Below, in pieces: positions 19,660-54,369 of a DNA stretch of 64,000 nucleotides (its first letter is position 1; each line of letters starts with the position of its first letter). The notes under the pieces are model-generated. The model made no database searches. It worked only from the letters and a program-made list of their open reading frames with translations, and was not told the DNA's origin. This DNA is from Octopus vulgaris (taxonomy: Eukaryota). Both the position numbers and the translations under genes were made by a program. The stretch is taken from the NCBI GenBank assembly GCA_951406725.2, contig OX597835.1:42966001-43030000 (forward strand), read 5' to 3'.

Positions 19660-20035
19660 TTAAAATAAGTAACAAGTATATCCAAGGTAATGTGGTACGA
19701 TCATTTCATACTACTTCATTTTATTAAACACTGTAAGCATTACATCAGTTTTAAAATGTCGAGCAATCTACAGCCACCTATAGAAATTTTTGAATCAAAC
19801 GGACAATGCACATTCTTATCCCTATCTCTGTCTTTTATATCTACCCTCTTTATAATGTTGTCAAATGAAATAGGGATAAGAATGTGCATTGTCCGTTTGA
19901 TTGGGAAATTTCTATATGTAGCTGAAGATTGCTTGACATTTTAAAACTGATGTAATGCTTACAGTGTTTAATAAAATGAAGTAGCATGAAACGATCGTAC
20001 CACATTACCTCGGATATACTTGTTGCTTATTTTAA
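19660..20035. mobile_element. Fold-back element (~165-bp arms, ~45-bp spacer) carrying hammerhead H2
   Basis: 19660-19825 is the reverse complement of 19870-20035; the left side extends to ~19561; (TA)n at the right end. Confidence 0.8.
19916..20005 (+). ncRNA. Type I hammerhead ribozyme motif (family H2)
   Basis: ATGTAG-CTGAAGA-T-TGCT..AGCA-T-GAAA-CGATCG-TA-CCACAT; palindromic stem III ACGATCGT. The inverted arm (19690-19779, minus) holds a decayed copy (CTGTAGA, GAAATGATCGTA). Confidence 0.75.
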
Positions 20036-36733: not shown

Positions 36734-37526
36734 GAGTCCACGCAATAAATCAATGAGTCTTTCTCTCTATTTCCTGGTGCATCATCATCATCATCGTTGT
36801 CATCATCATCATCAACATCATCATCACCGTCGTCATCGTCGTTGTCATCATCATCATAGTCGTCGTCATCCACGACACCATCATCTTTGTCATCATCGTC
36901 GTCGTCATCATCATCATCATCATCATCAACATCACTGTCATCATCATCACTATCATCATCAACATCAACATCATCATCATCACTATCATCAACATTGTCA
37001 TCATCATCATCCTCCTCCTCATCATCATCATCATCATCATGACCATCATCATCATCAACATCACTATCATCATCATCACTATCATCCTCATCATCGTCAT
37101 CGTCATCGTCATCGTCGTCATCATCATCATCATCACCATCATCATCATCAACATCAATATCATCATCGTCGTCGTCATCATCGTCATTGTCATCATCATC
37201 ATCATCAACATTATGTGATGAAGATCAAACAAAAGTAAAAAATGTCTGAAGCATTTCTCATGCAAAGTCTAAAGATCCTTGGCATCACTGATTTTGCAAG
37301 AAAATGTCCTTTATCTTCTTTTTTTGATAAAAAACATGCTTTTAAAGATTAAAGCTTAAAACATAAAAATTGTACCATCAATCATATGACTTTTATCTTT
37401 TATCTCTTACTTGCTTCAGTCACTTGACTGTAGCCATGCTGGAGCACTGCCTTGAAGATCTTTAGTTGAACAAATCAACCCCAGAACTTATTCTTTAAAA
37501 GCTTAGTACTTATTCTATCGGTCTCA

Positions 37527-37609
37527 TCAACTCACTATTTTCCACGAAGAATGTGTTCTCAAGAAATTTTTTCTTGAGAACACATTCTTCGTGGAAAATG
37601 GTGAGTTGA
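37527..37609. repeat. Near-perfect ~40-bp-arm palindrome with tail to (TA)n at ~37682
   Basis: TCAACTCACTATTTTCCACGAAGAATGTGTTCTCAAGAAA-TTT-TTTCTTGAGAACACATTCTTCGTGGAAAATGGTGAGTTGA. Confidence 0.9.
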
Positions 37610-38115
37610 CATCTATATCTAGCATAAAGGCTGTCCACTGGTTTTAATTGATTAATATCAATTTCTACCCTTATTTAATTTTATATATATATATATATAT
37701 GCATAAATATATACATATATATACATATATATATGAATGTATAAATAGTAAAATAAGGACTCAGATCTAATCAGATACTTGAAAAGATATGCACCAGATA
37801 GGGTTGGATAATCTCTGTAGTTCCAGCCAAGTATCAAATAGGATATTCCAGTTGTGCACACAAAAGTTGTACGGATAATACCACACTAATTTTTGGTGCG
37901 TCAGCTTAAGTACCTAATTCATCTGAGTCTCAATTAATTTGCTTATATATATATATATATATATATATAGGATCAAATCCAGGTGACAACGTAGGTGAGT
38001 TGGGTACAGAAATTCAGGGTGAGTACTTGATAATTGTAAGCACCTGTATATACCGTTTGGTGGTGTAGGTGGTGGAGTAAATTAATCAAAATAAAAACAT
38101 GATGCCAAGGATTCA

Positions 38116-38193
38116 GCGGTACATATGTTTCGGGTCTTTATTAGACGGATTTATAACAATGTATAATGTATGTCTGCGACCTTCTTCAGCCGC
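38116..38193 (-). ncRNA. Type I hammerhead ribozyme motif (family H1, inverted arm)
   Basis: Reverse complement reads GCGG-CTGAAGA-A-GGTC..GACC-C-GAAA-CATATG-TA-CCGC. Confidence 0.8.
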
Positions 38194-38459
38194 GCACAAC
38201 TATTTCCGCAAGGACATGTATTACATCAAAAATTCTACGTTGGGGATGCAAATCCTCTCATTCGCATACGACATAATGCGGCAACAGCATAAAAATGAAG
38301 CGTCCATCTCATTCTTCTCTCAATGTAGAATGAGAGAAGGACGAGATGGACGCTTCATTTTTATGCTGTTGCCGCATTATGTCGTATGCGAATGAGAGGA
38401 TTTGCATCCCCAACGTAGAATTTTTGATGTAATACATGTCCTTGATGTAGTAGTTGTGC

Positions 38460-38537
38460 GCGGCTGAAGAAGGCCACAGACACACATTATGCATTGTTAT
38501 AAATCCGTCTAATAAAGGCCCGAAACATATGTACCGC
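38460..38537 (+). ncRNA. Type I hammerhead ribozyme motif (family H1)
   Basis: GCGG-CTGAAGA-A-GGCC..GGCC-C-GAAA-CATATG-TA-CCGC; palindromic stem III ACATATGT, GUA triplet. Confidence 0.8.
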
Positions 38538-38599
38538 TGAATCCTTGGCATCATGTTTTTATTTTGTTTATATATATATATATATATATCAAAATCATA

Positions 38600-39137
38600 T
38601 TCGATGACTGGCATCCGTACTAGCAGGGTGCAAAGAGCACCATACAAGCATGATCGTTGACAGAGTGGCTAACCGGCTTCCAGCCAGTGGCACATAAAAG
38701 CCACCATTCGAGTGTGATCATTACCAGTGTAGCTTTACTGGCACTTGTGCCCCATGCTAGTAGGGTGCCAAGAGCACCATCCGAGCATGATCATTGCCAG
38801 AGCAGCCAACTGGCTTCTGTGCCAGTGGCATGTAAAAGGGCACCATTTGAGCATGATCGTTACCAACGTCGCCTTACTGGCACCTGTGCTGGTGGCATTT
38901 GTAAAAAGTTTCGAGTGAGGTTGTTGCCAGTACCGCCTGACTGGCCCTCGTGCCGGTGGCACGTAAAAGGCACCCACTACACTCTCGGAGTGGTTGGCGT
39001 TAGGAAGGGCATCCAGCTGTAGAAATTCTGCCAAATCAAGATTGGAGCCTGGTGCAGCCATCTGGTTTGCCAGTCCTCAGTCAAAATCGTCCAACTCATG
39101 GTAGCATGGAAAGCGGACGTTAAATGATGATGATGAT
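38600..39137 (+). mobile_element. Family C (tandem ~60-67-bp 5' units, AGGAAGGGCATCCAGC core, (GAT)n tail)
   Basis: Other copies at 43238-43573, 48670-49070, 49527-49965 and 16597-16915(-); tail-only copies at 9815, 27252 and 41036. Confidence 0.8.
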
Positions 39138-39148
39138 ATATATATTTT

Positions 39149-39201
39149 AACAAAACTGTCCGACGAACGGGAACGTGAAACTCTGAGTAGCTGCTTTTGT
39201 T
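39149..39201 (+). ncRNA. Minimal hammerhead-like motif, CCGACGA core, imperfect stem I
   Basis: AACAAAACTGT-CCGACGA-ACG-GGAA-CGT-GAAA-CTCTGAG-TA-GCTGCTTTTGTT, followed by AATAAA and (TA)n. Confidence 0.55.
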
Positions 39202-40122
39202 ATATTTCTGCTGCTTTTAAATAAAGTATATATATATATATATATATATATACACCCTGTATACATTAATACCCAGCATTTTTGCCTGTTACTCCAAAGG
39301 AAACTACTGCGAATAAATCAAACATGCTTCATCACACATAGACACTCACACACACACACTCACATGCACACACAAACACACCTATACACACACAAAAATT
39401 CATGCACATGTGTATATATATTCACAAATACTCACACACACACACCACACACAAACATTCACACACGGACTCACACGCACACACAAACATTCACACACAT
39501 ACACACACACTCACTCACACACACACATGCATATTCACAAACACACACACACACACACACACAAACATTCACACACACACACAATATAGACAATGGAGTG
39601 TGTCGTTGGGAGACGAGCAAAGTAACAAACCGGATGTTTGAGAAAGAAACAAGGAAAGGTTCGTTAGAGTTGAGCAATTAATTGATTTCTTGTGAAGTTT
39701 AAGAAGATTAGTGGAAGAGGCTAAAGTTGTTATGGAGCAACGATAAACTGTTTAATCTCAGTGGCTCTGGGATTGTTGAGGGATTGGCACTGAAGATGTT
39801 TCGGTTGGTTGACTTTTAACTGGAGGTTGTCCTTGCATGACATCATCATGCGTTTAGCATCACCACTGAAACATCCTCCTTCAAACAGCCTCTTACTCAT
39901 CATCATCATCATCATCATCATTGTTATTGTTGTCGTTATTGTCATTGTTGGTAGGAGCAGAGCCGTCATCATCAAGATCATCAGTTACCATCATCATAAT
40001 TATCATCTTCATCACAACCACCTCCACCATCATCATCATCATTGTCATCACAATCACCATTATCTTCATCTTCATCATCATCATCATCATCATCATCGTT
40101 ATCTTCATCTTCATCATCATCC

Positions 40123-40167
<45 letters not shown>

Positions 40168-40445
40168 CAACCATCACCACCACCATCGTTGTCGTGGTTG
40201 TTGTCATCGTCGTCGTCATCACTATCATCTCCATTTTCCCATGCTAATACGAGAAGGGCACCCACCCCCCTTACAACAGTAGGCCACATCAATATGTACC
40301 CTCACCTCACTTCAAAAGGCATCACAACCCTCATCTCACCTGCAGCCCATCCACACTTCATTTATATTCCACATAACTATACACTATCTGATCAAACATA
40401 AACACACATACATACACACACACATACACACACATACATGCTTTC

Positions 40446-40481
<36 letters not shown>

Positions 40482-40744
40482 ATATATATGAGCTGGCAGA
40501 CATGTTAGCAAGCTGGGCGAAATGCGTAGCCGTATTTCGTCTGCCAATACGTTCTGAGTTCAAATTCCGCCGAGGTCGACTTTGCCTTTCATCCTCTCGG
40601 GGTCGATAAATAAAGTACCAGTTTCGCACTGGGGTTGATTTAATCGAGTTAATCCCTTTGTCTGTCCTGGTTTGTCCCCTCTATGTTTAGCCCCTTGTGG
40701 TTAGTAAAGAAATATATATATATATATATATATATACATCTATA

Positions 40745-40987
40745 CAGGGTTGGTCAAAAGTCATCTGACAGTAAATCAAAACCCATCTAATTCTAAGATT
40801 TATTTATGTTTAACAACTGAATGTGACTTCACTAATAAAGAGACAAATGTTGAAAAAAAAAAAAAACATGATTTTAGCTCATAGCATTCAATTATCAATC
40901 ATTCATAATTGGAATGAATAAAAAAAATTGAATATTAAGTATTTATGGAAGTTTGATTTACTGTCAGATGACTTTGGGCCAACCCTG
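40745..40987. mobile_element. Tc1/mariner-type MITE
   Basis: TA|CAGGGTTGGTCAAAAGTCATCTGACAGTAAATCAAA ... TTTGATTTACTGTCAGATGACTTTGGGCCAACCCTG|TA. Confidence 0.8.
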
Positions 40988-41041
<54 letters not shown>

Positions 41042-41168
41042 CATCATCGTTTAACGTCCGTTCTCCATGCTAGCATGGGTTGGACGGTTCGACCGGGGAT
41101 CTGGGAAGCCAGAAGGCTGCACCAGGCTACAGTCTTATCTGGCAATGTTTCTACAGCTTGATGCCCTT

Positions 41169-41226
<58 letters not shown>

Positions 41227-41259
41227 TGTATTATGTATACACACACACACACATATATA

Positions 41260-41651
41260 CTCTTTTACTTTTTTAATTGTTTCAGGCATTTGACTGTGGC
41301 CATGCTGGAGCACCGCATTCAGTCGAACAAACCAACCCCAAGACATATATACTTTGTAAGCCTAGTACTTATTCTATCAATCTCTTTTGCCAAATCGCTA
41401 AGTTACAGGGATATAAACACCCCAGCATCAGTTGTCAAGCGATGTTGGGGGGGGACAAACACATATATATATACATATATATATATAAAGATAGATACGA
41501 CGAGCTTCTTCCATCTACCAATTCCACTCACAAGGCTTTGGTCGGCCCAAAGTTATAGCAGAAGGCACTTACCCAAGGTGTCAGGCAGTGGGACTGAACC
41601 CAGAGCCATGTGGTTGGGAAGCAAGTTTCTTATCACACAGCCACACCTGCG

Positions 41652-41653
<2 letters not shown>
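41260..41653 (-). mobile_element. SINE A
   Basis: Family consensus, reverse strand. Confidence 0.8.
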
Positions 41654-41704
<51 letters not shown>

Positions 41705-41710
41705 TAATAT

Positions 41711-41951
41711 ACATTACTCGATAGTCAAGATAAAACTCTGAGTTTCAGATGCCGAAGTGGGAATCCACAACGCCATCTCTTCGGTTATCTGGCTATCTGA
41801 AGAGATGGCGTTGTGGATTCCCACTTCGGCATCTGAAACTCAGAGTTTTATCTTGACTATCGAGTAATGTAACATATTATTTTATAGATAAATTTCCTCT
41901 ATTTACATAATATTGAGGTCTCCTTCTTTCTTTTGTTATCTTACCGTTTTA

Positions 41952-41955
<4 letters not shown>
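41711..41955. mobile_element. Fold-back element (~72-bp arms) made largely of a hammerhead, plus right-hand tail
   Basis: 41711-41783 is the reverse complement of 41799-41870; (TA)n on both sides. Confidence 0.85.
41728..41790 (-). ncRNA. Type I hammerhead ribozyme motif with CCGAAGA core
   Basis: Reverse complement AGATAA-CCGAAGA-GATG..GTGG/CCAC..CATC-T-GAAA-CTCAGAG-TT-TTATCT; 6-bp stem I. The plus-strand arm (41797-41853) has CTGAAGA but lacks a matching 5' stem I strand. Confidence 0.65.
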
Positions 41956-41994
<39 letters not shown>

Positions 41995-42600
41995 GATGGG
42001 CTTCTACACAATTTCCATTTGTCAAATTCACTCTCAATAGCTAGGCTTAGAGCTATAGTTGAAACCACTTGCCCAAGGTGCCTCATAATGGGCCTGAACC
42101 CGGAACCACATAGCTTCAAAGTGAGCTTCTCGACCACACAGAAAAGTCTGCAGTTATAAAACAAAATTCTTACAGAAGAATTGTGAGACGGCTGAATGGA
42201 TAAGCAGCTGGGCTGCCAGAGTATAGGTTAAGGGTTCAAATGCATGATAGGTGTCTTGTGTTTCTGCATAGAACATTTTATTCATCATTACCTCTCTTCA
42301 AGTTGAACAAGCCCCTTAACCCTTTGGGGGTCATTGGAGTGCTGTAGCCATGCAGTGTATCTAGGGTGAGAAAGCCGGGCAGAGACCATCCCTCTCCAGG
42401 CTGAACTCATTTCTACAGCTGAGTGAACTGGAACAATATGAAATGAAGTGTCTTGCTCAAGAACACAACACATTGCCTGGTACAGGGATTGAAACCACAA
42501 TTTTACAGTCATGAATCCAACAGCCTAACCACTAAGTGATACACCTCCACCAGTGGTACTCATTAATACAGCTGAGTGGACTGCAGCAACATGAAACGAA

Positions 42601-42693
42601 GTGGCACCTTGGGCAAGTGTCTTCTACTATAGCCTCGGGCTGACCAAAGCATGTGAGTGGATTTGGTAGATGGAAACTGAAAGAAGCCAGTCG

Positions 42694-42751
<58 letters not shown>

Positions 42752-42963
42752 TGTGTCTGTGTTTGTCACCCTAGCATTGCTTGACAACCAATGCTGGTGT
42801 GTTTATGTCCCTGTTACTTAGCGGTTCGGCAAAAAGAGACCGATAGAATAAGCACTGGGCTTACAAAAGAATAAGTCCCGGGGTCAAGTTGCTCGATTAA
42901 AGGCGGTGCTCCAGCATGGCCATAGTCAAATGACTGAAACAAGTAAAAGAGTAAAAGAGTAAA
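42601..42963 (+). mobile_element. SINE A (5'-truncated)
   Basis: Starts at GTGGCACCTTGGGCAAG; nested in another SINE. Confidence 0.8.
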
Positions 42964-44516
42964 GTGTCTTGCTCAAGAACACAATGGATCCAGGAATGGA
43001 AACTGCAATCTTAGGTTGTTGTGAATCCAATGCCTTAACCACATTAAATGGGAGCACCATCTGCAAGAGACTAGCGACCTATCCAGATCAGTGATTCGTG
43101 TCTCATTTGCTTCACTACAAAACCAAAAATGAAGTACCAACTCTCAAACTCCCCTCCAGGGACACGAAGAACACTTATGTTGCTGTTCTTTGGTTTAGCC
43201 CTATAGTATTCAGATATTATTCTGTCAAATGTTTTAGCACTGGCTTGACTGGCTTCTGTGCCGGTGGCACGTAAAAAGCACCATCCGAACGTGGCCGATG
43301 CCAGCACCGCCTTGACTGGCTTCTGTGCCAGTGGCACGTAAAAAGCACCAACCGATCATGGCCACTGCCAGCCTCCCCTGGCACCTGTGCTGGTGGCACG
43401 TAAAAAGCACCCACTACACTCATGGAGTGGTTGACATTAAGAAGGGCATTGAGCTGTAGAAACACTGCCAGATCAGACTGAGCCTGGAGCAGCCTTCTGG
43501 CTTCCCAGACCCCGGTCGAACTGTCCAACCCGTGCTAGCATGGAAAATGGACGTTAAATGATGATGATGATGATTGTTTGGAATTAATTCTGTATTATCT
43601 CATATATTTGAGATTTCAATGATGTGATTGTTTGCTCTTATGATGACATTGCAGGTTAGGTCTGAGAGGCCAGATCTGGTCAGTTTGATTGTAAAATAGT
43701 CAGAATATTTGGGCCAGATATGGCCAGTTTGAATGTTAACAGGCTAAACGACCCCAATCAGATCAACCCTTATTCAGCAGAGCTATGATTGAAGAAGTTC
43801 CAACCATGACCATCCCGTCCTTTCTTTGAAAGTAACATACCTAAGAGATTAACATTTGTGTCCTTCCTTTTCCAAAACAGTAGGGGGATTGTGACTGGAG
43901 GAGGAATTGGCTGCTATTTCTCTCTGGTCATATGACTCTTTAGAAGCTCTACTCTCTACCAAAAATACTAATTGTGTTGGGTTATATCAAGGTTACTTGT
44001 GGGAAGAGACTGTGAAAGAAGGATTAAGGAGTTATGTACTCAATACTGGTGTATGCGACATTGTAATGATCATACTGGCATTGTAGAGACTAATAGTAAT
44101 TCTACACCATCCACATACCACTGACACAGAATTGAATAAAAGAAAGGAAAAATTCCAGCTGTTTTTTTGCTATTTTCTCCACACCAAAATGGGTGGAACA
44201 GACCTGCAAATTTATACATTTTCCTGATCTCTTCACGTAATTGCCTGCCTACTTAGATGTTGTTTTGAAGGAAAGACATTGTTGTTTGGATAATCTGCCA
44301 TAGAAGTGAAAAGAACTGTGAAATGATGAAGATTATTAAAGACGAAGCACTTGAGAGTTTGGAAGACGGATCGGTGGAATAACGTCTTGAACAAGGATGG
44401 AGTATGTTGTGCTAATACAATCTCTGCTGATTGCAAGAATGTTTAATCATTCCGGAGCAGATGGACCACCATCCAACATCATACACACACACACACACAT
44501 GGACACACACACACAC

Positions 44517-44548
<32 letters not shown>

Positions 44549-44890
44549 AAATATATATGAAAATATATGTATATGTTTATACATACATACATGCACACAT
44601 ACACACACATATATACATACATACATTGTAATTATATATATATATATAAATGAATATAGACACATACATACATGCATATTATATATCAATCCATTTCTCT
44701 CTCCCTCCCCCTCCCGCTCTCCCTCACCATCAACTAATAACATATTCACTCTCTACAGCCAACCTCCAGTATTTTGCTTCTGCTCCCACCAATACTCACC
44801 TCTTTTTCCTCCAACTTCAATCATTAGAACTATGACAACAAACCAACTACAACAATGCGTGCTCACTTAATATCAATATTTATGATACCA

Positions 44891-44936
<46 letters not shown>

Positions 44937-45163
44937 CTTTTACTCTTTTACTTGATTCAGTCATTTGACTGTGGTCATGCTGGAGCACTGCCTTTAGTTG
45001 AACAAATCAACCCCAGGACTTATTCTTTGTAAGCCTGGTACTTATTCTATCGGTCTCTTTTGCTGAACTGCTAAGTTATGGGGGATATAAACTCACCAAC
45101 ATTGGTTGTCAAGCGATGGTGGGGGGGACAAACACAGACACACACACATATACATATATATGT

Positions 45164-45222
<59 letters not shown>

Positions 45223-45383
45223 AGAGGCTTCTTTCAGTTTCCGTTTACCAAATCCACTCGCAAGGCTTTGGTCAGCCTGAGGCTATAGTAGAAGACACTT
45301 GCCCAAGGCCCCACACAGGGGGACTGAACCCAGAACCATGTGGTTGGTAAGCAAGCTTCTTACCACACAGCCACTCCTGTGCC
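44937..45383 (-). mobile_element. SINE A full copy
   Basis: Family consensus, reverse strand. Confidence 0.85.
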
Positions 45384-45394
45384 TTACATACATA

Positions 45395-45574
45395 TTATTC
45401 AAAACCATTTGGTTCGGTTTCAATGCTGCTTCAAGTTTCCCAAACTGCTAATGAAGCCTGTCTCCTTCAGGCTCTTTTTTCCAGGCGACAGGTGACAGGC
45501 GACAGGTGACAGGTTCCTTTAGGACCCCCAAAACTTGAAGTAGCACAGAAACTGAACCAAACTGTTTTAAATAA
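45395..45574. repeat. Diverged inverted repeat with internal (GGYGACA)4 tandem
   Basis: TTATTCAAAACCATTTGGTTCGGTTTC..CTTCAAGTTT versus AAACTTGAAG..GAAACTGAACCAAACTGTTTTAAATAA. Confidence 0.65.
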
Positions 45575-45766
45575 CTCCTATTAAATGTGTTGAATGCTCT
45601 TTTCTTTCATTTGTCCAGCATGGCTGTGTGGTAAGAAGCTTGCTTCCCAACCACATGGTTCCAGGTTCAGTCCTACAGTGTGGTACCTTGGCCAAGCGTC
45701 TTCTACTATAGCCTCAGGCTGACCAAAGCCTTTTGAGAAAATTTGGGAGATGGAAACTGGAAACTG

Positions 45767-45810
<44 letters not shown>

Positions 45811-46048
45811 GTATATATATATGCGTGTGTGTGTGTGTATCAGGCATGTGTCATGAGTAATTACTTAGGGTAGGCAGTTGGTGACTTTTACGTAGTAAAA
45901 CACACAAAAAAATAAGCGAAACACAAGCACACAACTGAGTTGAAGGCAGATTTACTTCTGCCTTTATAGCGCGTAAACTTTTTCTCCTGCACTTACTCCG
46001 GAAGCAACTGTAGGTTGCGACAGCAACAATCTTCAGTCATATATATAT

Positions 46049-46320
46049 AGGGAGAGTTTACGGAAAAAAACAAAAGACGAAGACAGGTGGTGTACAAAAC
46101 AAACAGATGTATTAGTATAACGCTCAGGAATAGAAAAAGTCTTTTACGTTTCGAGCCTACGCTCTTCTACAGAAAGGGACACGGAGAGAAACAAGGAAAG
46201 ATAAAAATGTGTGTAGTGGCTAATGATCAATCATGGCGACTGACTCGGACAAAAGGGCCACACACGAGAAGGAAAGTAGGGGAGATAACAAGGTGAAGAT
46301 GACCCCCAACACGAAGGTGC
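46049..46320 (-). mobile_element. Dispersed repeat family E (carries the 46141 hammerhead-like motif)
   Basis: AAACAAAAGA.GAAGACAGGTG..TGTATTAGT.T.AC.CTCAGGAA also at ~24740-24818, with a diverged partial copy at ~27470-27535. Confidence 0.6.
46141..46176 (-). ncRNA. Minimal hammerhead-like motif with non-canonical core (CTGTAGA)
   Basis: Reverse complement CTTT-CTGTAGA-A-GAGC-GTAG-GCTC-GAAA-CG-TA-AAAG. Confidence 0.45.
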
Positions 46321-46435
46321 GTGTGTGTATAAGAGAGTATGTATGTGCGTGTGTGTATAAGAGAGTATGTATGTGCGTGTGAAAGAGGGCTGGTGGTCTG
46401 GACATGTGCGTGTATGTATGTGTAGGTGTGAAAAC

Positions 46436-46467
<32 letters not shown>

Positions 46468-46568
46468 CAGGCTGAATACTTGATAACTGTAAGCACCTGT
46501 ATATGCCAGTTAGTGGTGTAGGTGATAGGGTATATTTATCAAAAGAAAAACAGGATGCAAATGATTTA

Positions 46569-46655
46569 GTGGTACATATGTTTCTGGCTTTATTGGACAG
46601 TTTATATCAATGCATAATTGATGTAACATGTATGTCAATAGCCTTCTTCAGCCGC
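46569..46655 (-). ncRNA. Type I hammerhead ribozyme motif (family H1, inverted arm, one stem I mismatch)
   Basis: Reverse complement GCGG-CTGAAGA-A-GGCT..AGCC-A-GAAA-CATATG-TA-CCAC. Confidence 0.7.
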
Positions 46656-47105
46656 GCACAATTACCACACCAAAGACATGTATTACATTATAGCAGGTTA
46701 TTTTTTTATTTTTTTATCCCTTTATATTTTTATTTTACGTCTTTTATTTTTTCGCTTCTTTATCTTTATTTATTTATATACTTATATACTTATTTTTTTA
46801 CTCTTATTTTTTTACATTACTTTTTTTACATTTTTACTTTTTTATTACATTTTGCACTTACTATTTTTCCTCTTTGTGATCCCAAACTCATTAGAGATTC
46901 ACCCCCTTCCACTCCTTCCCTCTTTATCTCAACATCCAACCTCCTCATTCTATATCGAGTGAAAAACGGTATGGACGTTTTGTTTTCGTGTCTCACTCTG
47001 CTCTATACGACTATGAGGATTTGCATCCCCAACGGAACTCGTCTTTTTCCCAAACTTCTCAAACCTGCTATAATGTAATACATGTCTTTGGTGTGGTAAT
47101 TGTGT

Positions 47106-47192
47106 GCGGCTGAAGAAGGCTATTGACATACATGTTACATCAATTATGCATTGATATAAACTGTCCAATAAAGCCAGAAACATATGTACCGC
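47106..47192 (+). ncRNA. Type I hammerhead ribozyme motif (family H1, diverged subfamily)
   Basis: GCGG-CTGAAGA-A-GGCT..AGCC-A-GAAA-CATATG-TA-CCGC. Confidence 0.78.
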
Positions 47193-47381
47193 TAAATCCT
47201 TTGCATCCTGTTTTTCTTTTGATAAATATATATATATATATGTATATATGTATATATATATCCTTAAAATCCTTAAAAATGTTTTGGCCCGAAGGCCGCG
47301 GCCATGCTGGGGCACCACCGCTGTTTATATATGTTTATATATATGTATGTATATTTATATATGTTTATATATATATATACG

Positions 47382-47414: not shown

Positions 47415-47740
47415 TGACATATATTTGCCATTTAAGTATGGCTAACCCCTAAGGGGGGATGCTACTGTCGTTTGTAGCCCCAGGAGGATACATCCTCCAG
47501 TTGGCTTTAGTTGCCATTTAAATATGGCTAACCCCTAAGATGGCTGAAGGTTACTGTAGTTTGTAGCCCCAGGAGGAAACCTCCTCCAGCTGGCTTTAGT
47601 GTGTCTAAAGCCAGTTGGAGGAGGTGTCCTCCTGGGGCTACAAACTACAGTAGCATCCACCCCCTTAGGGGTTAGCCATATTTAAATGGCAAATACATGT
47701 CACGATGTGTTGCAGCTACTGTTTATAACTCGCTCTAAGA
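47411..47740. mobile_element. Two tandem ~88-bp units followed by one inverted unit, in (TA)n
   Basis: Unit TTGCCATTTAA.TATGGCTAACCCCTAAG..GGCTTTAG at ~47425 and 47511; inverted copy 47605-47706. Confidence 0.85.
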
Positions 47741-48176: not shown

Positions 48177-50269
48177 TGTATGTATGTGTCTATGTGTGTG
48201 TGTCTCTGTGTTTGTCCCTGCGTCACTGCTTGACAGCTGGTGTTAGTTTGTTTACATCCTCGTAACTTAGCAGTTCAGCAAAAAAGACTGATAGAATAAA
48301 TACTAGACTTCAAAAAAAAAAAGGGGGCCTGAGGTAGATTTGTTCAATTAATGCCATTCAAGGCAGTGCTCCAGCATGGCCACAGTCAAATGACTGAAAC
48401 AAGCAAATGGATGAAAGAACACACACACACACACACACATATATATAATACTTACAACATTTAATAAAATGATGTAGTACGAAACGATCGTACCAAATTA
48501 CCGGAGTCATTCTTGTTGCTTATTTTGAGTATATATATATATATAATTTCTTTCTTTTCGAATTCTTTTCTTTTATGAGGGTTTTCACGCTAACTACCTG
48601 ATAATTTCTTGTTAAGATTCCTTATTAAGAAATTATCCTTAATTGTTAAATATATATATATATATATAATCGAAATCGATCAATGGAAATCGATCAATGG
48701 AAATTGCAGATGTGTTACCAGTGCCGGTGGCATGTAAGAGAACCTTCCGTTTCATGACCGTTGCCAGCACCGCCCCGTTTCGTGTCCGTTGCCAGCCTCG
48801 CCAGGCCCTCGTGCCGGTGGCACATAAAAAGCACCATCCGTTCGTGGCCGTTTGCCAGCTCTGTCTGGCACCTGTGCGGGTGGCACGTAAAAAGCACCCA
48901 CTACACTCATGGAGTGGTTGGCGTTAGGAAGGGCATCCAGCCGTAGGAACACTGCCAGATCAGACTGGGCCTGATGCAGCCTTCTGGCTTCACAGACCCC
49001 AGTTGAACCATCCAACCCATGCTAGCATGGAAAGCGGACGCTAAATGATGATGATGATGATGATGATGATATATATATATAGGCAGATGAATTTGGCCTT
49101 CAGAAAAAGATAAGTTACTGAAAAGGTTGTGAATGGCAACAAAAGAACTTTGATGAGCACAAAAAACAAAACAAAAAAAGCAAAATGATTGTTAAACGAA
49201 TAAGTTTAAACAAACGATCAATTAGTTGGATAAATATTTAACCATTTGACTAATATTAAAGGAGTGGAATTGGACTGGTACATGTGGTATTAATGTTGGC
49301 ATTATGCCTCTCCCGAGAAACAACAAAATTTGTTTCAGCACATGAATCCTTATAAAGAATCTCACAACACTAATAAAAAAAAAACAAGGTGTATATCTGT
49401 GTGTGTATATATATATTCTTTTCTACTCTAGGCACAAGGCCCAAAATTTTTGGGTAGGGGGTTAATAGATTAGATCAACACCAGTACGCAACTGGTACAT
49501 TATATATATATATATATATATATATACCAGTGCCGGTGGCACGTAAGCGAACCATCTGAACGTGACCATTGCCAGCACCACCCCGATGGGCCGGTGGCAC
49601 GTAAAAAAGCACCATCCGTTCGTGGCGTTGCCAGTCTCACCTGGCCCCGTGCTGGTGGCATGTAAAAGCACCATCTGATCGTGGCTGTTGCTAGCCTCGC
49701 CTGGCCCCCGTGCCGGTGGCACATAAAAAGCACCATCCGACCGTGGCCATTTGCCAGCCTCGTCTGGTACCTCTGCCGGTGACACGTAAAAAGCACTCAC
49801 TACACTCACAGAGTGGTTGGCGTTAGGAAGGGCATCCAGCCGTAGAAACATTGCCAGATCAGACTGGGCCTAGTGCAGCCTTCTGGCTTCCCAGACCCCA
49901 GCTGAACCGTCCAACCCATGCCAGCATGGAAAGCGGACGCTAAATGATGATGATGATTATGATGATATATATATATATGTTTTTATTCTTTTATTCTTTT
50001 ACTTGTTTCAGTCATTTGACTGCAGCCCCGCTGGAGCACTGCTTTAGTCGAACAAATCGATCCCAGGGCTTCTTCCTTGTAAGCCTAGTGCTTATTCTAT
50101 CGGTTCTCTTTTGCTAAACTGGTAAGTTACAGGGACATGAACACACCAACATCAGTTATCAAGTGATGGTGGAGGGACAAGCACTCACACACACATATAC
50201 GATGGGCTTCTTTCAGTTTCCGTCCACCAAATCCACTCAAAGTTTTGGTTGGCCCGAGTTATAATTGGA

Positions 50270-53797: not shown

Positions 53798-53940
53798 GAC
53801 ATTAAAACGGTGGTGGTGGTGGGGAAGATGGTGGTGGTAACTGCCCGAAATGGTCATGATTTCTGGGACTTGACTGATGAAAGAAAGCCAAGAATGAGCC
53901 GTCTTTTTTTGGCCATGTCCTTCTAATTGTTGTTTTTCTT

Positions 53941-54369
53941 GTCGGACTTTGTATGGGTGCGAGACCTGGACACTAAAGAAAGCTGACCAGAAGAAAATTA
54001 ATGCATTTGAGCTTTGGTGTTGGAGAAGACTTTTACGGATTCCATGGACAGCGAGGCTCACCAATGGAGAAGTTCTTAAGCAGATAAGGCCGAAAATGTC
54101 GCTAGAAGCTAGGATCACCAAGCATAGATTGGCATATTTTGGTCATATTATGCAGAGAAAATCCCTGGAGAAGGATATCATGCTCGGAATGGTCAGTGGC
54201 AAGAGAGGAAGAGGCCGACCAAGAACCTGCTGGCTTGACACCATCAAGAGTGATACTGGAATGGACATAGCCAATCTGAAAGAAGCAGCCCAGGATAGAA
54301 CTGACTGGAGGACACTGATCCATCGAGTAACCGAGAGTCGACTTCGACTGAGCAGATAGATAGATAGAT
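53941..54369 (+). pseudogene. RTE-clade LINE 3' fragment with (TAGA)n tail
   Basis: YGCETWTLKKAD..AFELWCWRRLLRIPW..YFGHIMQR..GKRGRGRPRTCW. Confidence 0.9.

Follow-up and report, generated by a model that had tools for sequence, protein, structure and literature searches.

The 64,000-nt octopus window analyzed here, whose numbering all coordinates follow, carries four copies of a hammerhead-like motif at 38116-38193(-), 38460-38537(+), 46569-46655(-) and 47106-47192(+), where a sequence-only reading had located them. As that reading described, the core words CTGAAGA, GAAA and CATATG-TA are the same in all four copies, and the 3' strand of stem I reads CCGC in three copies and CCAC, a one-base change, in 46569(-). 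Stem II reads GGTC/GACC in 38116(-), GGCC/GGCC in 38460(+) and GGCT/AGCC in both 46569(-) and 47106(+); the two double differences that preserve pairing are present in the sequence. The motif is no chance occurrence: exact matches number 2,093 genome-wide against none for a reversed control. The four copies make up the arms of just two insertions and so do not represent four independent observations.

The first insertion (37970..38568) consists of two 5'-truncated Penelope-like 3' ends joined head-to-head between (TA)n tracts (37944-37969 and 38569-38589). Its 240-nt arms are 95% complementary to each other and 90-93% identical to the ends of the ORF-bearing elements L107 and L109. Copy 1 lies in the left arm (38116..38193, minus strand; GGTC at 38181-38178 and GACC at 38136-38133, a genome singleton), with a predicted cut between 38120 and 38119 and a predicted misfold. 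The left arm continues as a long tail (37970..38082, minus strand) that reaches 150 nt beyond the cut site, into the 5' UTR of the full-length unit. Copy 2 belongs to subfamily S12 (38460..38537, plus strand; GGCC at 38472-38475 and at 38517-38520) and has its predicted cut after 38533; the arm stops 35 nt beyond it. The second fold-back insertion (46463..47225), from the older subfamily S4, also sits between (TA)n tracts. Its arms differ at 3 of 169 positions, and its interior (46700-47061) corresponds to the T-rich 3' UTR of the element. Copy 3 (46569..46655, minus strand) combines GGCT/AGCC with a stem I broken by the CCGC to CCAC change, in an arm that extends 110 nt beyond the cut. Copy 4 (47106..47192, plus strand; GGCT at 47118-47121 and AGCC at 47172-47175) has its predicted cut after 47188, and its arm stops 37 nt further on.

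We predict all four motifs to be type-I hammerheads, located at the ends of a Penelope-like retroelement (PLE) of the Hydra type that has more than 2,000 copies in the genome. The window contains no ORF of this element; uninterrupted 842-codon ORFs are found elsewhere in the genome, and their frames carry YRDD and VIY...YIG (reverse transcriptase (RT) and C-terminal GIY-YIG). The L230 ORF shows ADKT, CNCRCASEC, CQLC..E and N..CIH, corresponding to the Hydra-clade DKT, the CxCx5C linker and the CxxC/CxH flanking E and N. An N-terminal motif reads RWA in the octopus family and RWK or RWR in sister families. Pfam searches with three ORF pieces returned no significant family; many homologues carry PF26215 and two carry PF01541. 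Our RT tree comprises lineages of the octopus genome, and the putative Hydra placement is by motifs. The hammerhead motif is located 197 nt upstream of the ATG (cut site to ATG, L230) and is repeated 1.6-2 kb downstream of the ORF; L230, L234 and L236 have a direct upstream hammerhead, and the unit length is ∼4.4 kb (L231). L110 was rejected as a tandem element, as it is an 8.1-kb segmental repeat. Like the two insertions in the window, which lie in (TA)n, 234 of 252 copies run into a TA or TC repeat no more than 200 nt from the cut.

All four copies contain the type-I core CUGANGA...GAAA...UH (CTGAAGA, GAAA and GTA), around which helices I, II and III are in register and open at helix I, with one helix I mismatch in 46569(-). 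The usual core-adjacent pair G10.1-C11.1 is absent, and A·C or A·A flanks the first G-C (15 rows, S1-S14, of our alignment A2, where 18 of 25 rows leave column pair 13-82 unpaired). Copies ending in C could retain the G-C with a bulged C; A-ending copies (S3-S6) cannot. Rfam returned no hammerhead at the gathering score in the window; on L250 and L253, relaxing the threshold to E = 10 gave 54 weak hits, with no hammerhead in the set. The long loop II probably defeats the Rfam hammerhead models. Loop II, earlier described as diverging freely, has predicted extension helices in each of the four copies and is thus structured. Helix III is short and has a palindromic loop permitting a double hammerhead, ACATATGT. 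The double hammerhead is the dimer of minimum free energy (MFE) for 38460(+) and 47106(+), not for 38116(-) or 46569(-). The outcome depends on the flanks: with 10 nt of flank, 15 of 17 subfamily majorities also have it as dimer MFE, but lengthening the flanks to 20 nt sequesters the core in 13 of 17. Among 10 real copies from other lineages, just 2 have the double hammerhead as MFE. We also considered whether loop II contains a conserved poly(A) signal. Words resembling AATAAA are present in every RT-anchored lineage, but A2 places them at positions that are not homologous and are in part paired; a literature search on such a signal returned nothing specific, and the lead is weak.

The four copies had been taken as direct evidence of selection on RNA structure. 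Such selection finds support across the family but not directly in these copies; by our sequence comparisons it is visible only between source lineages, not among copies. At four stem sites we counted 6, 12, ∼9 and 21 changes among ∼1,560 copies, compared with 7-22 expected for loop G/C sites, and stem sites in genomic copies mutate as often as loop sites. Unpaired single substitutions are as common as paired ones among the genomic copies, the outcome that had been named as speaking against the claim; dead insertions are expected to show it. Between lineages, covariation is seen at stem I, stem II and the palindromic loop: double changes fill 53 cells, compared with 17 after shuffling and 1-9 in slid registers, and 92.6% of cells are paired. 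RNAalifold finds a double change in 7 of 10 pairs, and in 31 motifs found without a stem requirement, 30 of them from other families, 103 of 124 stem II positions are paired, compared with 23-51 when slid. The palindromic loop occurs as CATATG, CACGTG, CAATTG and CGATCG, and in-register doubles at stem I, stem II and this loop fall on separate branches of the RT tree. Pair-breaking changes are fixed in the distal loop II hairpin. Part of the invariance of the core within the family follows from our search patterns, which fix it, and the A2 rows for sister families were collected by a scan requiring pairing. The case shows that source lineages, rather than dead copies, must be the units in which covariation is counted.

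The difference between GGCT/AGCC and GGCC/GGCC (pair 4) is, from the distribution of its states, a single inherited source-lineage change with an amplified U·G step. Pairwise alignment renders it as a gap, since the A-run preceding AGCC lacks one base in the 46-kb copies; in subfamily S6 it is an A/G difference at equal length. Genome-wide, pair 4 is C-G in 1,522 copies, U-A in 401, U·G in 89 (from 96 matched rows) and C·A in 15 (from 22 rows). U·G is the majority state of subfamilies S7, S8 and S10; the C·A copies are scattered over several subfamily backgrounds. In the outgroup S0, whose RT is ∼75% identical and forms the sister branch (98/94), pair 4 is U-A and pair 1 is A-U. With U-A ancestral and U·G copies amplified, the source lineage likely passed through the wobble. 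Pair 4 represents one event, perhaps two, and is thus weak evidence alone; a Fisher test on its copy counts was dropped, as copies are not independent. Divergence does not fall monotonically along the subfamily ladder, the copy-level tree is too noisy for ordering subfamilies, and the RT tree does not fix the S3/S9 node.

GGTC/GACC (pair 3) is unique in the genome: a search allowing three mismatches returned the 38116(-) haplotype itself, one GGCC/GACC copy and nothing else. On its background 16 single changes occur, 11 of them mismatches, and a G-to-A single at pair 3 is found in 10 copies. The number of chance doubles expected at pair 3 alone is ∼0.05, before other pairs and after-the-fact noticing are allowed for; the probability of a chance double in the four proximal pairs of 38116(-) is 1-1.5%, rising to 5% when the whole of domain II is counted. 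All 13 RT-anchored lineages have C-G at pair 3, and lineage S1b (5 copies) also has U-A there, via a deletion. The fold of 38116(-) is predicted to lie 5.4 kcal/mol off the double hammerhead, and its A-to-G change at 38177 is predicted to favor a hairpin burying CUGAAGA. In silico, the pair 3 double rescues the G-to-A single (gap 1.1 compared with 8.9 kcal/mol). GGTC/GACC most likely represents two private mutations in one diverged copy, which is likely dead, and it proves little alone.

The sequence-only reading had further proposed that the 38-kb arms differ by a compensatory pair and came from two templates. The pair does differ, but in total the arms show 12 differences over 240 positions, and 9 of these fall inside a 74-nt patch (38135..38208, minus strand); partial support for two templates comes from three subfamily-diagnostic sites in this patch, not from the compensated pair. 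These sites (38208, 38205 and 38170) match the rare subfamily S13. The changes at 38203, 38179, 38177, 38162 and 38135 have no S13 counterpart, one further arm difference of the patch is on the right arm, and no donor copy for the patch changes was found in the assembly. A-to-I editing was rejected as their source, as four of these five extra changes read, on the RNA strand, as G-to-A or C-to-T. From these differences the 38-kb arms look mosaic; their inner 100 nt are identical, including a shared rare allele. Two templates are not the rule: 48 of 55 fold-backs lack a subfamily-diagnostic arm difference, and both arms share rare alleles in 15 of 55. We found 58 fold-backs in the genome; exactly one arm has a long tail in 51 of 53.

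Had both stem II doubles been selected, the 38116(-) arm would have been copied from a distinct, rare active source with a compensated U-A at pair 3. The S13 background of the patch, unlike that of the other arm, the clustering of its five extra changes, the in silico rescue and the pair 3 U-A of S1b, reached by deletion, fit such a source. The failure of the three-mismatch search to return a second GGTC/GACC copy, the predicted hairpin at 38177 and the invariance of pair 3 in RT-anchored lineages render it quite unlikely. The patch could instead be an assembly or polishing chimera or a haplotype mosaic, in which case neither the double nor the two-source reading would be real at this locus. 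Perfect fold-backs of a 2,000-copy family are difficult to assemble; none of the listed contig pieces from six of 24 listed sequencing runs, where no run is recorded as RNA, spans the GGTC/GACC haplotype, and depth over 38151-38191 at 95% likeness is zero in two of four runs. However, the runs represent contigs of other samples and such holes prove nothing, a donor with the five changes would still be needed, and a second locus, L100, has a similar S13 long-tail arm. We regard an artifact as unlikely.

The singleton double might also have arisen, without selection, by hairpin-templated repair in single-stranded cDNA or cruciform DNA, the first G-to-A being copied across the stem. The G-to-A single is common, and the identical inner arms with their shared rare allele suggest inter-arm repair. 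A 4-bp stem closing 42 nt is, however, expected to be very unstable in DNA, and the mismatch was left unrepaired in 10 copies; we consider this route very improbable. Even less credible to us is that common descent and mutation bias alone produced the covariation, RNA structure being under no selection. Copy-level counts are indeed inflated by amplification, stem sites mutate freely in copies, and Rfam reports no hammerhead at either threshold, but the in-register doubles at stems I and II and the palindromic loop lie on separate RT branches, and slid registers collapse.

We consider it probable that the four motifs are dead copies of a hammerhead, predicted to act as a dimer, that a Hydra-type PLE carries in its terminal repeat, with selection on the fold likely confined to the few sources still transposing. 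The ribozyme would cut tandem transcripts after GUA, two copies pairing through ACAUAUGU, and reverse transcription would start ∼40 or ∼110 nt beyond the cut, on RNA that is uncut or has been re-ligated. Head-to-head joining would then involve either two truncated cDNAs or a single cDNA together with its fold-back copy. Source elements likely succeeded one another from U-A through U·G to C-G at pair 4 and from A-U to G-C at pair 1, with C·A never amplified, and copies decay neutrally after insertion. The patch most likely reached the 38116(-) arm from a second source, either as a second RNA at insertion or by later gene conversion. A more elaborate scheme appears doubtful to us: PLE fold-back insertions would arise as an RT dimer primes both target strands, one from each of two fixed starts ∼40 and ∼110 nt past the cut, on two RNAs joined by the double hammerhead, with the 38-kb locus as a rare case in which different co-active subfamilies supplied the two RNAs and the S0-S14 ladder reflecting a ribozyme tuned in vivo through the G·U step and the A·C closing pair.

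A literature search (octopus hammerheads, G-U intermediates in retroelement subfamilies, PLE twin priming; most subscription papers fell outside it) returned no description of this family or its ladder. Lunse et al. reportedly describe dimer cleavage of PLE hammerheads, and that work may already cover variants without G10.1-C11.1. PLE hammerheads with compensatory changes, including those of an octopus Hydra family, are already described, and the headline is not new. PMC8557442 (Craig et al. 2021) ascribes to C-terminal EN+ PLEs of the Hydra clade the features seen here: DKT, the CxCx5C linker, CxxC/CxH around the conserved E and N, a C-terminal GIY-YIG, (TA)n targets, a hammerhead close to the 3' end, inverted copies truncated at the 5' end, and a tail on one side. 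Those elements are generally <3 kb with RWK and tails of 30-40 nt, whereas our unit is ∼4.4 kb with RWA, a tail of ∼70-80 nt and a loop II of 42-57 nt. The supplement of that paper lists an Octopus family with a hammerhead, Hydra-1_Obim, which is another family by protein and hammerhead sequence (compared by eye; an exact-string search was negative).

The PLE hammerheads in the accessible sections of PMC4209133 (Cervera and de la Pena 2014) have a highly conserved G10.1-C11.1 and one extra base on the 5' side, whereas here an unpaired base lies on both sides of the proximal G-C (A·C or A·A in the family, G·U in the outgroup); the ladder traced here has no counterpart in those sections. The Poseidon PLE of Anolis, PAc (PMC11167929; Frangieh et al. 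2024), resembles the scheme proposed here: it has two RT starts downstream of the hammerhead that define the tail, cuts and extends both target strands, uses uncut RNA as main template and has an AT-rich target. It belongs to a different clade, and its ORF begins inside the hammerhead rather than 197 nt after the cut. Non-LTR retrozymes, proposed as PLE-derived (PMC7229834 and bioRxiv 10.64898/2026.07.22.740005), share the type I hammerhead, the weak palindromic helix III and an occurrence as animal repeats. They are short head-to-tail tandem repeats without an ORF; our copies lie dispersed in the genome as truncated, head-to-head ends of an element with an ORF, and we rejected a retrozyme identity. 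The PAc hammerhead required protein for cleavage, cleavage was dispensable for insertion in vitro (PMC11167929), and the role of the ribozyme in EN+ PLEs is called unclear in PMC8557442. The ordered natural variants found here (U-A, U·G and C-G; G·U to A·C next to the core) can test whether selection keeps cleavage. PMC8557442 also names the making of inverted PLE insertions as open, a question on which the one-arm long tails (51 of 53), the few mosaic arms and the uninterrupted ORFs bear.

Re-inspection of the sequence bore out the four hammerhead motifs and stems of the sequence-only reading. The motifs (38116-38193(-), 38460-38537(+), 46569-46655(-), and 47106-47192(+)) form the arms of two insertions, each head-to-head and flanked by (TA)n: at 37970-38568 the arms are 95% complementary across 240 nt, and at 46463-47225 they are 98% complementary across 169 nt. 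Exact matches to the motif number 2,093 across the 2.8-Gb genome, against none for a reversed control. By eye, the two truncated arms seemingly share a short microhomology (TGAG, 38323-38334) at the inversion point. A fifth hammerhead, from a sister Penelope-like element (PLE) family, lies at 19918-20003(+) (CTGAAGA core at 19922, stem II TGCT/AGCA, loop CGATCG) and is similar to lineages E and G.

At the fourth stem II pair, which distinguishes GGCT/AGCC from GGCC/GGCC, core-intact copies genome-wide carry C-G (1,522), U-A (401), U·G (89 of 96 rows, the other 7 having other bases), or C·A (15 of 22 rows). We sorted 252 fetched copies, a non-random sample in which stem mutants are over-represented, by positions outside stem II into 18 groups and 5 unassigned copies. 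The majority state is U-A in subfamilies S1-S6, U·G in S7, S8, and S10, C-G in S9 and S11-S14, and C·A in none of the groups. The sister lineage S0 (reverse transcriptase (RT) about 75% identical, branch support 98/94) carries U-A here; its pair 1 is A-U and its core-proximal position G·U. These sequences suggest that the source lineage likely passed from U-A through U·G to C-G, the last step possibly having occurred twice or been recombined, because C occurs with the long loop in S9 and U with the short one in S10. Diagnostic changes accumulating step by step, together with the outgroup, define the subfamily order; mean divergence declines non-monotonically from ∼4-5% (S1-S3) to 1-2% (S11-S14), and the tree of copies is noisy. 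The pair 4 double is a real, inherited compensatory change with U·G majority subfamilies, yet a single event.

The pair 3 double (GGTC/GACC) is a singleton. T occurs at the 5' site in 20 copies and A at the 3' site in 29, both by substitution only in the window copy; in the small old lineage S1b (5 copies, five contigs) U faces A via a deletion. Single changes on the GGCC background comprise 5 U·G (two in tandem duplicates), 10 C·A (two from opposite arms of the same insertion), and 1 AACC; a further 7 wobbles and 10 mismatches come from older backgrounds. A 3-mismatch genome search returned no close relatives of the haplotype. About 0.05 doubles are expected on the GGCC background if the sites change independently, and five random changes in a 74-nt patch of the left arm (38135-38208(-)) strike both partners of a proximal pair in 1-1.5% of cases and of any domain II pair in 5%. 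Taken for one copy these figures are suggestive, but the double is unsurprising given ∼2,000 copies, several pairs, and post hoc noticing. Pair 3 is C-G in 13/13 RT-anchored lineages. In silico, the double without other changes rescues the lone G-to-A mutation (a gap of 1.1, against 8.9 for the single); in the 38116(-) copy itself, an adjacent A-to-G change is predicted to favor a CUGAAGA-burying hairpin by 5.4 kcal/mol.

The compensatory changes had been read as direct evidence of selection on RNA structure. Among genomic copies such selection is not visible: unpaired single changes show no depletion and are as common as paired ones, the pattern that the sequence-only reading had named as its refutation and one that dead insertions would be expected to show. 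From loop G/C sites, scored in 54 and 144 copies, 7-22 changes would be expected among 1,560 copies; counts at the four stem sites are 6 (only C to T), 12 (only G to A), about 9 (a by-eye count), and 21. Between lineages, structural selection is supported. In an alignment of 25 hand-chosen lineage representatives, whose rows are related and whose sister-family rows come from a scan requiring pairing, 92.6% of cells are paired and 53 carry double changes (17 when shuffled, 1-9 in slid registers); 7/10 RNAalifold pairs show a double change. Doubles in helices I and II, like those in the palindromic loop (CATATG, CACGTG, CAATTG, CGATCG), occupy separate RT-tree branches. A stem-free control pattern, with only the core fixed and the family's stem I start excluded, gave at least 1,415 genome matches versus 7 reversed; in 31 motifs from its first 30 loci, stem II is paired at 103/124 positions (23-51 when slid) and stem I at 95 (50-85 when slid). 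These other hammerhead-like motifs (e.g. loci L180-L209) belong largely to other families of AAGGCTGC/GCAGCCTT, TAGC/GCTA, and AAGAT types, and their core-adjacent pair varies (G-C, G·U, U-A, A-U, mismatches). Loop II, described earlier as diverging freely, is instead predicted to form extension helices; in its distal hairpin, pair-breaking changes and a ∼10-nt deletion have been fixed.

The two arms of the 38-kb fold-back had been ascribed tentatively to different templates. They differ at three subfamily-diagnostic sites, of which the survey of fold-backs, its upstream comparison truncated for this pair, scored one. The left arm matches the rare S13 at 38208, 38205, and 38170, and also at 38313, but along the innermost 100 nt it agrees with the right arm (S12), down to a rare allele that both carry. 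Locus L039 has the opposite combination, which requires recombination, and 9/12 arm differences fall within 74 nt (p about 0.03). Two sources are thus likely at this locus, as judged from diagnostic sites. The mixture may reflect the use of two RNAs during insertion, subsequent gene conversion, or an assembly chimera, three origins that are not separable because no contig from 6 sequencing runs spans the GGTC/GACC haplotype. Locus L100 is a second, weaker mosaic-arm case. Among 58 fold-backs in fetched loci (55 comparable), 48/55 lack a subfamily-diagnostic difference, so that two templates are not the general pattern. Identical arms are no proof of a single template when one source dominates; rare alleles common to both arms, found in 15, favor one source locus.

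Exactly one long tail is present in 51/53 scorable fold-backs, one arm stopping <60 nt beyond the cut while its partner runs farther (mostly 100-130 nt), independent of which arm carries the ORF. Copy ends, in a collection that spans the cut site by construction, lie 30-59 nt beyond it in 127/252 and 100-129 nt in 85/252. This clustering suggests that RT would start in either of two zones, on a template of RNA left uncut or re-ligated. Locus L231 (2638-7055) holds a full-length element that opens and closes on identical 10 bases about 40-50 nt beyond the cut, one ∼4.4-kb unit permuted away from the cut site, which fits a circular or tandem RNA template.

Ribozyme activity is a prediction, since folding depends on flanks and only 2/10 real copies from other lineages have a double hammerhead as the minimum free energy (MFE) structure. 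The 38-kb copies are predicted not to form the hammerhead as monomers (stem II probability ≤0.01), and the double hammerhead is the dimer MFE for 38460(+) and 47106(+). With 10-nt flanks this holds in 15/17 subfamily majorities; extending the flanks to 20 nt buries the core in 13/17. AATAAA, ATTAAA, or TATAAA occurs 17-26 nt ahead of the cut (window 38511-38516; L242-L248, L285, L286, L291) with a T-rich tract behind, resembling a poly(A) signal; this is a weak lead because positions are non-homologous across families.

Other repeats in the window (37521-37611, 47425-47705, 38600-38970, 43236-43411, 48779-48898, and 49590-49796) include an 87-nt near-perfect hairpin, a fold-back whose internal repeats are 89 nt long, and a dispersed element containing tandem units of 63-67 nt. 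A 153-amino acid frame at 53898-54359(+) presumably resembles the C-terminal portion of an RTE-type LINE reverse transcriptase. Locus L110 (1-9901) contains an 8.1-kb tandem segmental repeat bearing a solo hammerhead end and, by eye, apparent LTR-retroelement and LINE remnants.

The parent element, a Penelope-like retroelement, has a 4.4-kb unit, and a protein search of the genome found uninterrupted 842-codon frames in 4 of 150 scored matches. Full-length copies carry a hammerhead 197 nt 5' of the ATG and a second one 1.6-2 kb past the stop; the arms in the window share 90-93% (38 kb) and 76-79% (46 kb) identity with their ends. Uninterrupted ORFs of 940-1,090 codons occur in several sister PLE families (L242-L249, L292-L296) whose RTs are 45-61% identical; multiple PLE lineages were thus active recently. 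Our sister-family scan found no hammerhead near the 45%-identity family (L247/L295/L296).

Overall, the original observation stands and its interpretation is supported in part; the family is valuable for its series of natural variants in order, for an unusual A·C or A·A adjoining the core, and for the asymmetry of its arms. In PLE hammerheads, palindromic loops and compensatory families of this kind are already described (PMC4209133). An uncut or re-ligated template with two start zones, suggested here by copy ends, is demonstrated in vitro for Poseidon (PMC11167929). The ORF carries the DKT, CxCx5C, CxxC, and CxH marks of the Hydra clade (PMC8557442 section 11), to which these motifs would assign it, with RWA in place of RWK; 2/5 named homologues are from Argonauta. 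The supplement to PMC8557442 lists another Octopus Hydra family with its own hammerhead, distinct from ours. The family is new; the kind of element and the kind of ribozyme are both already known.
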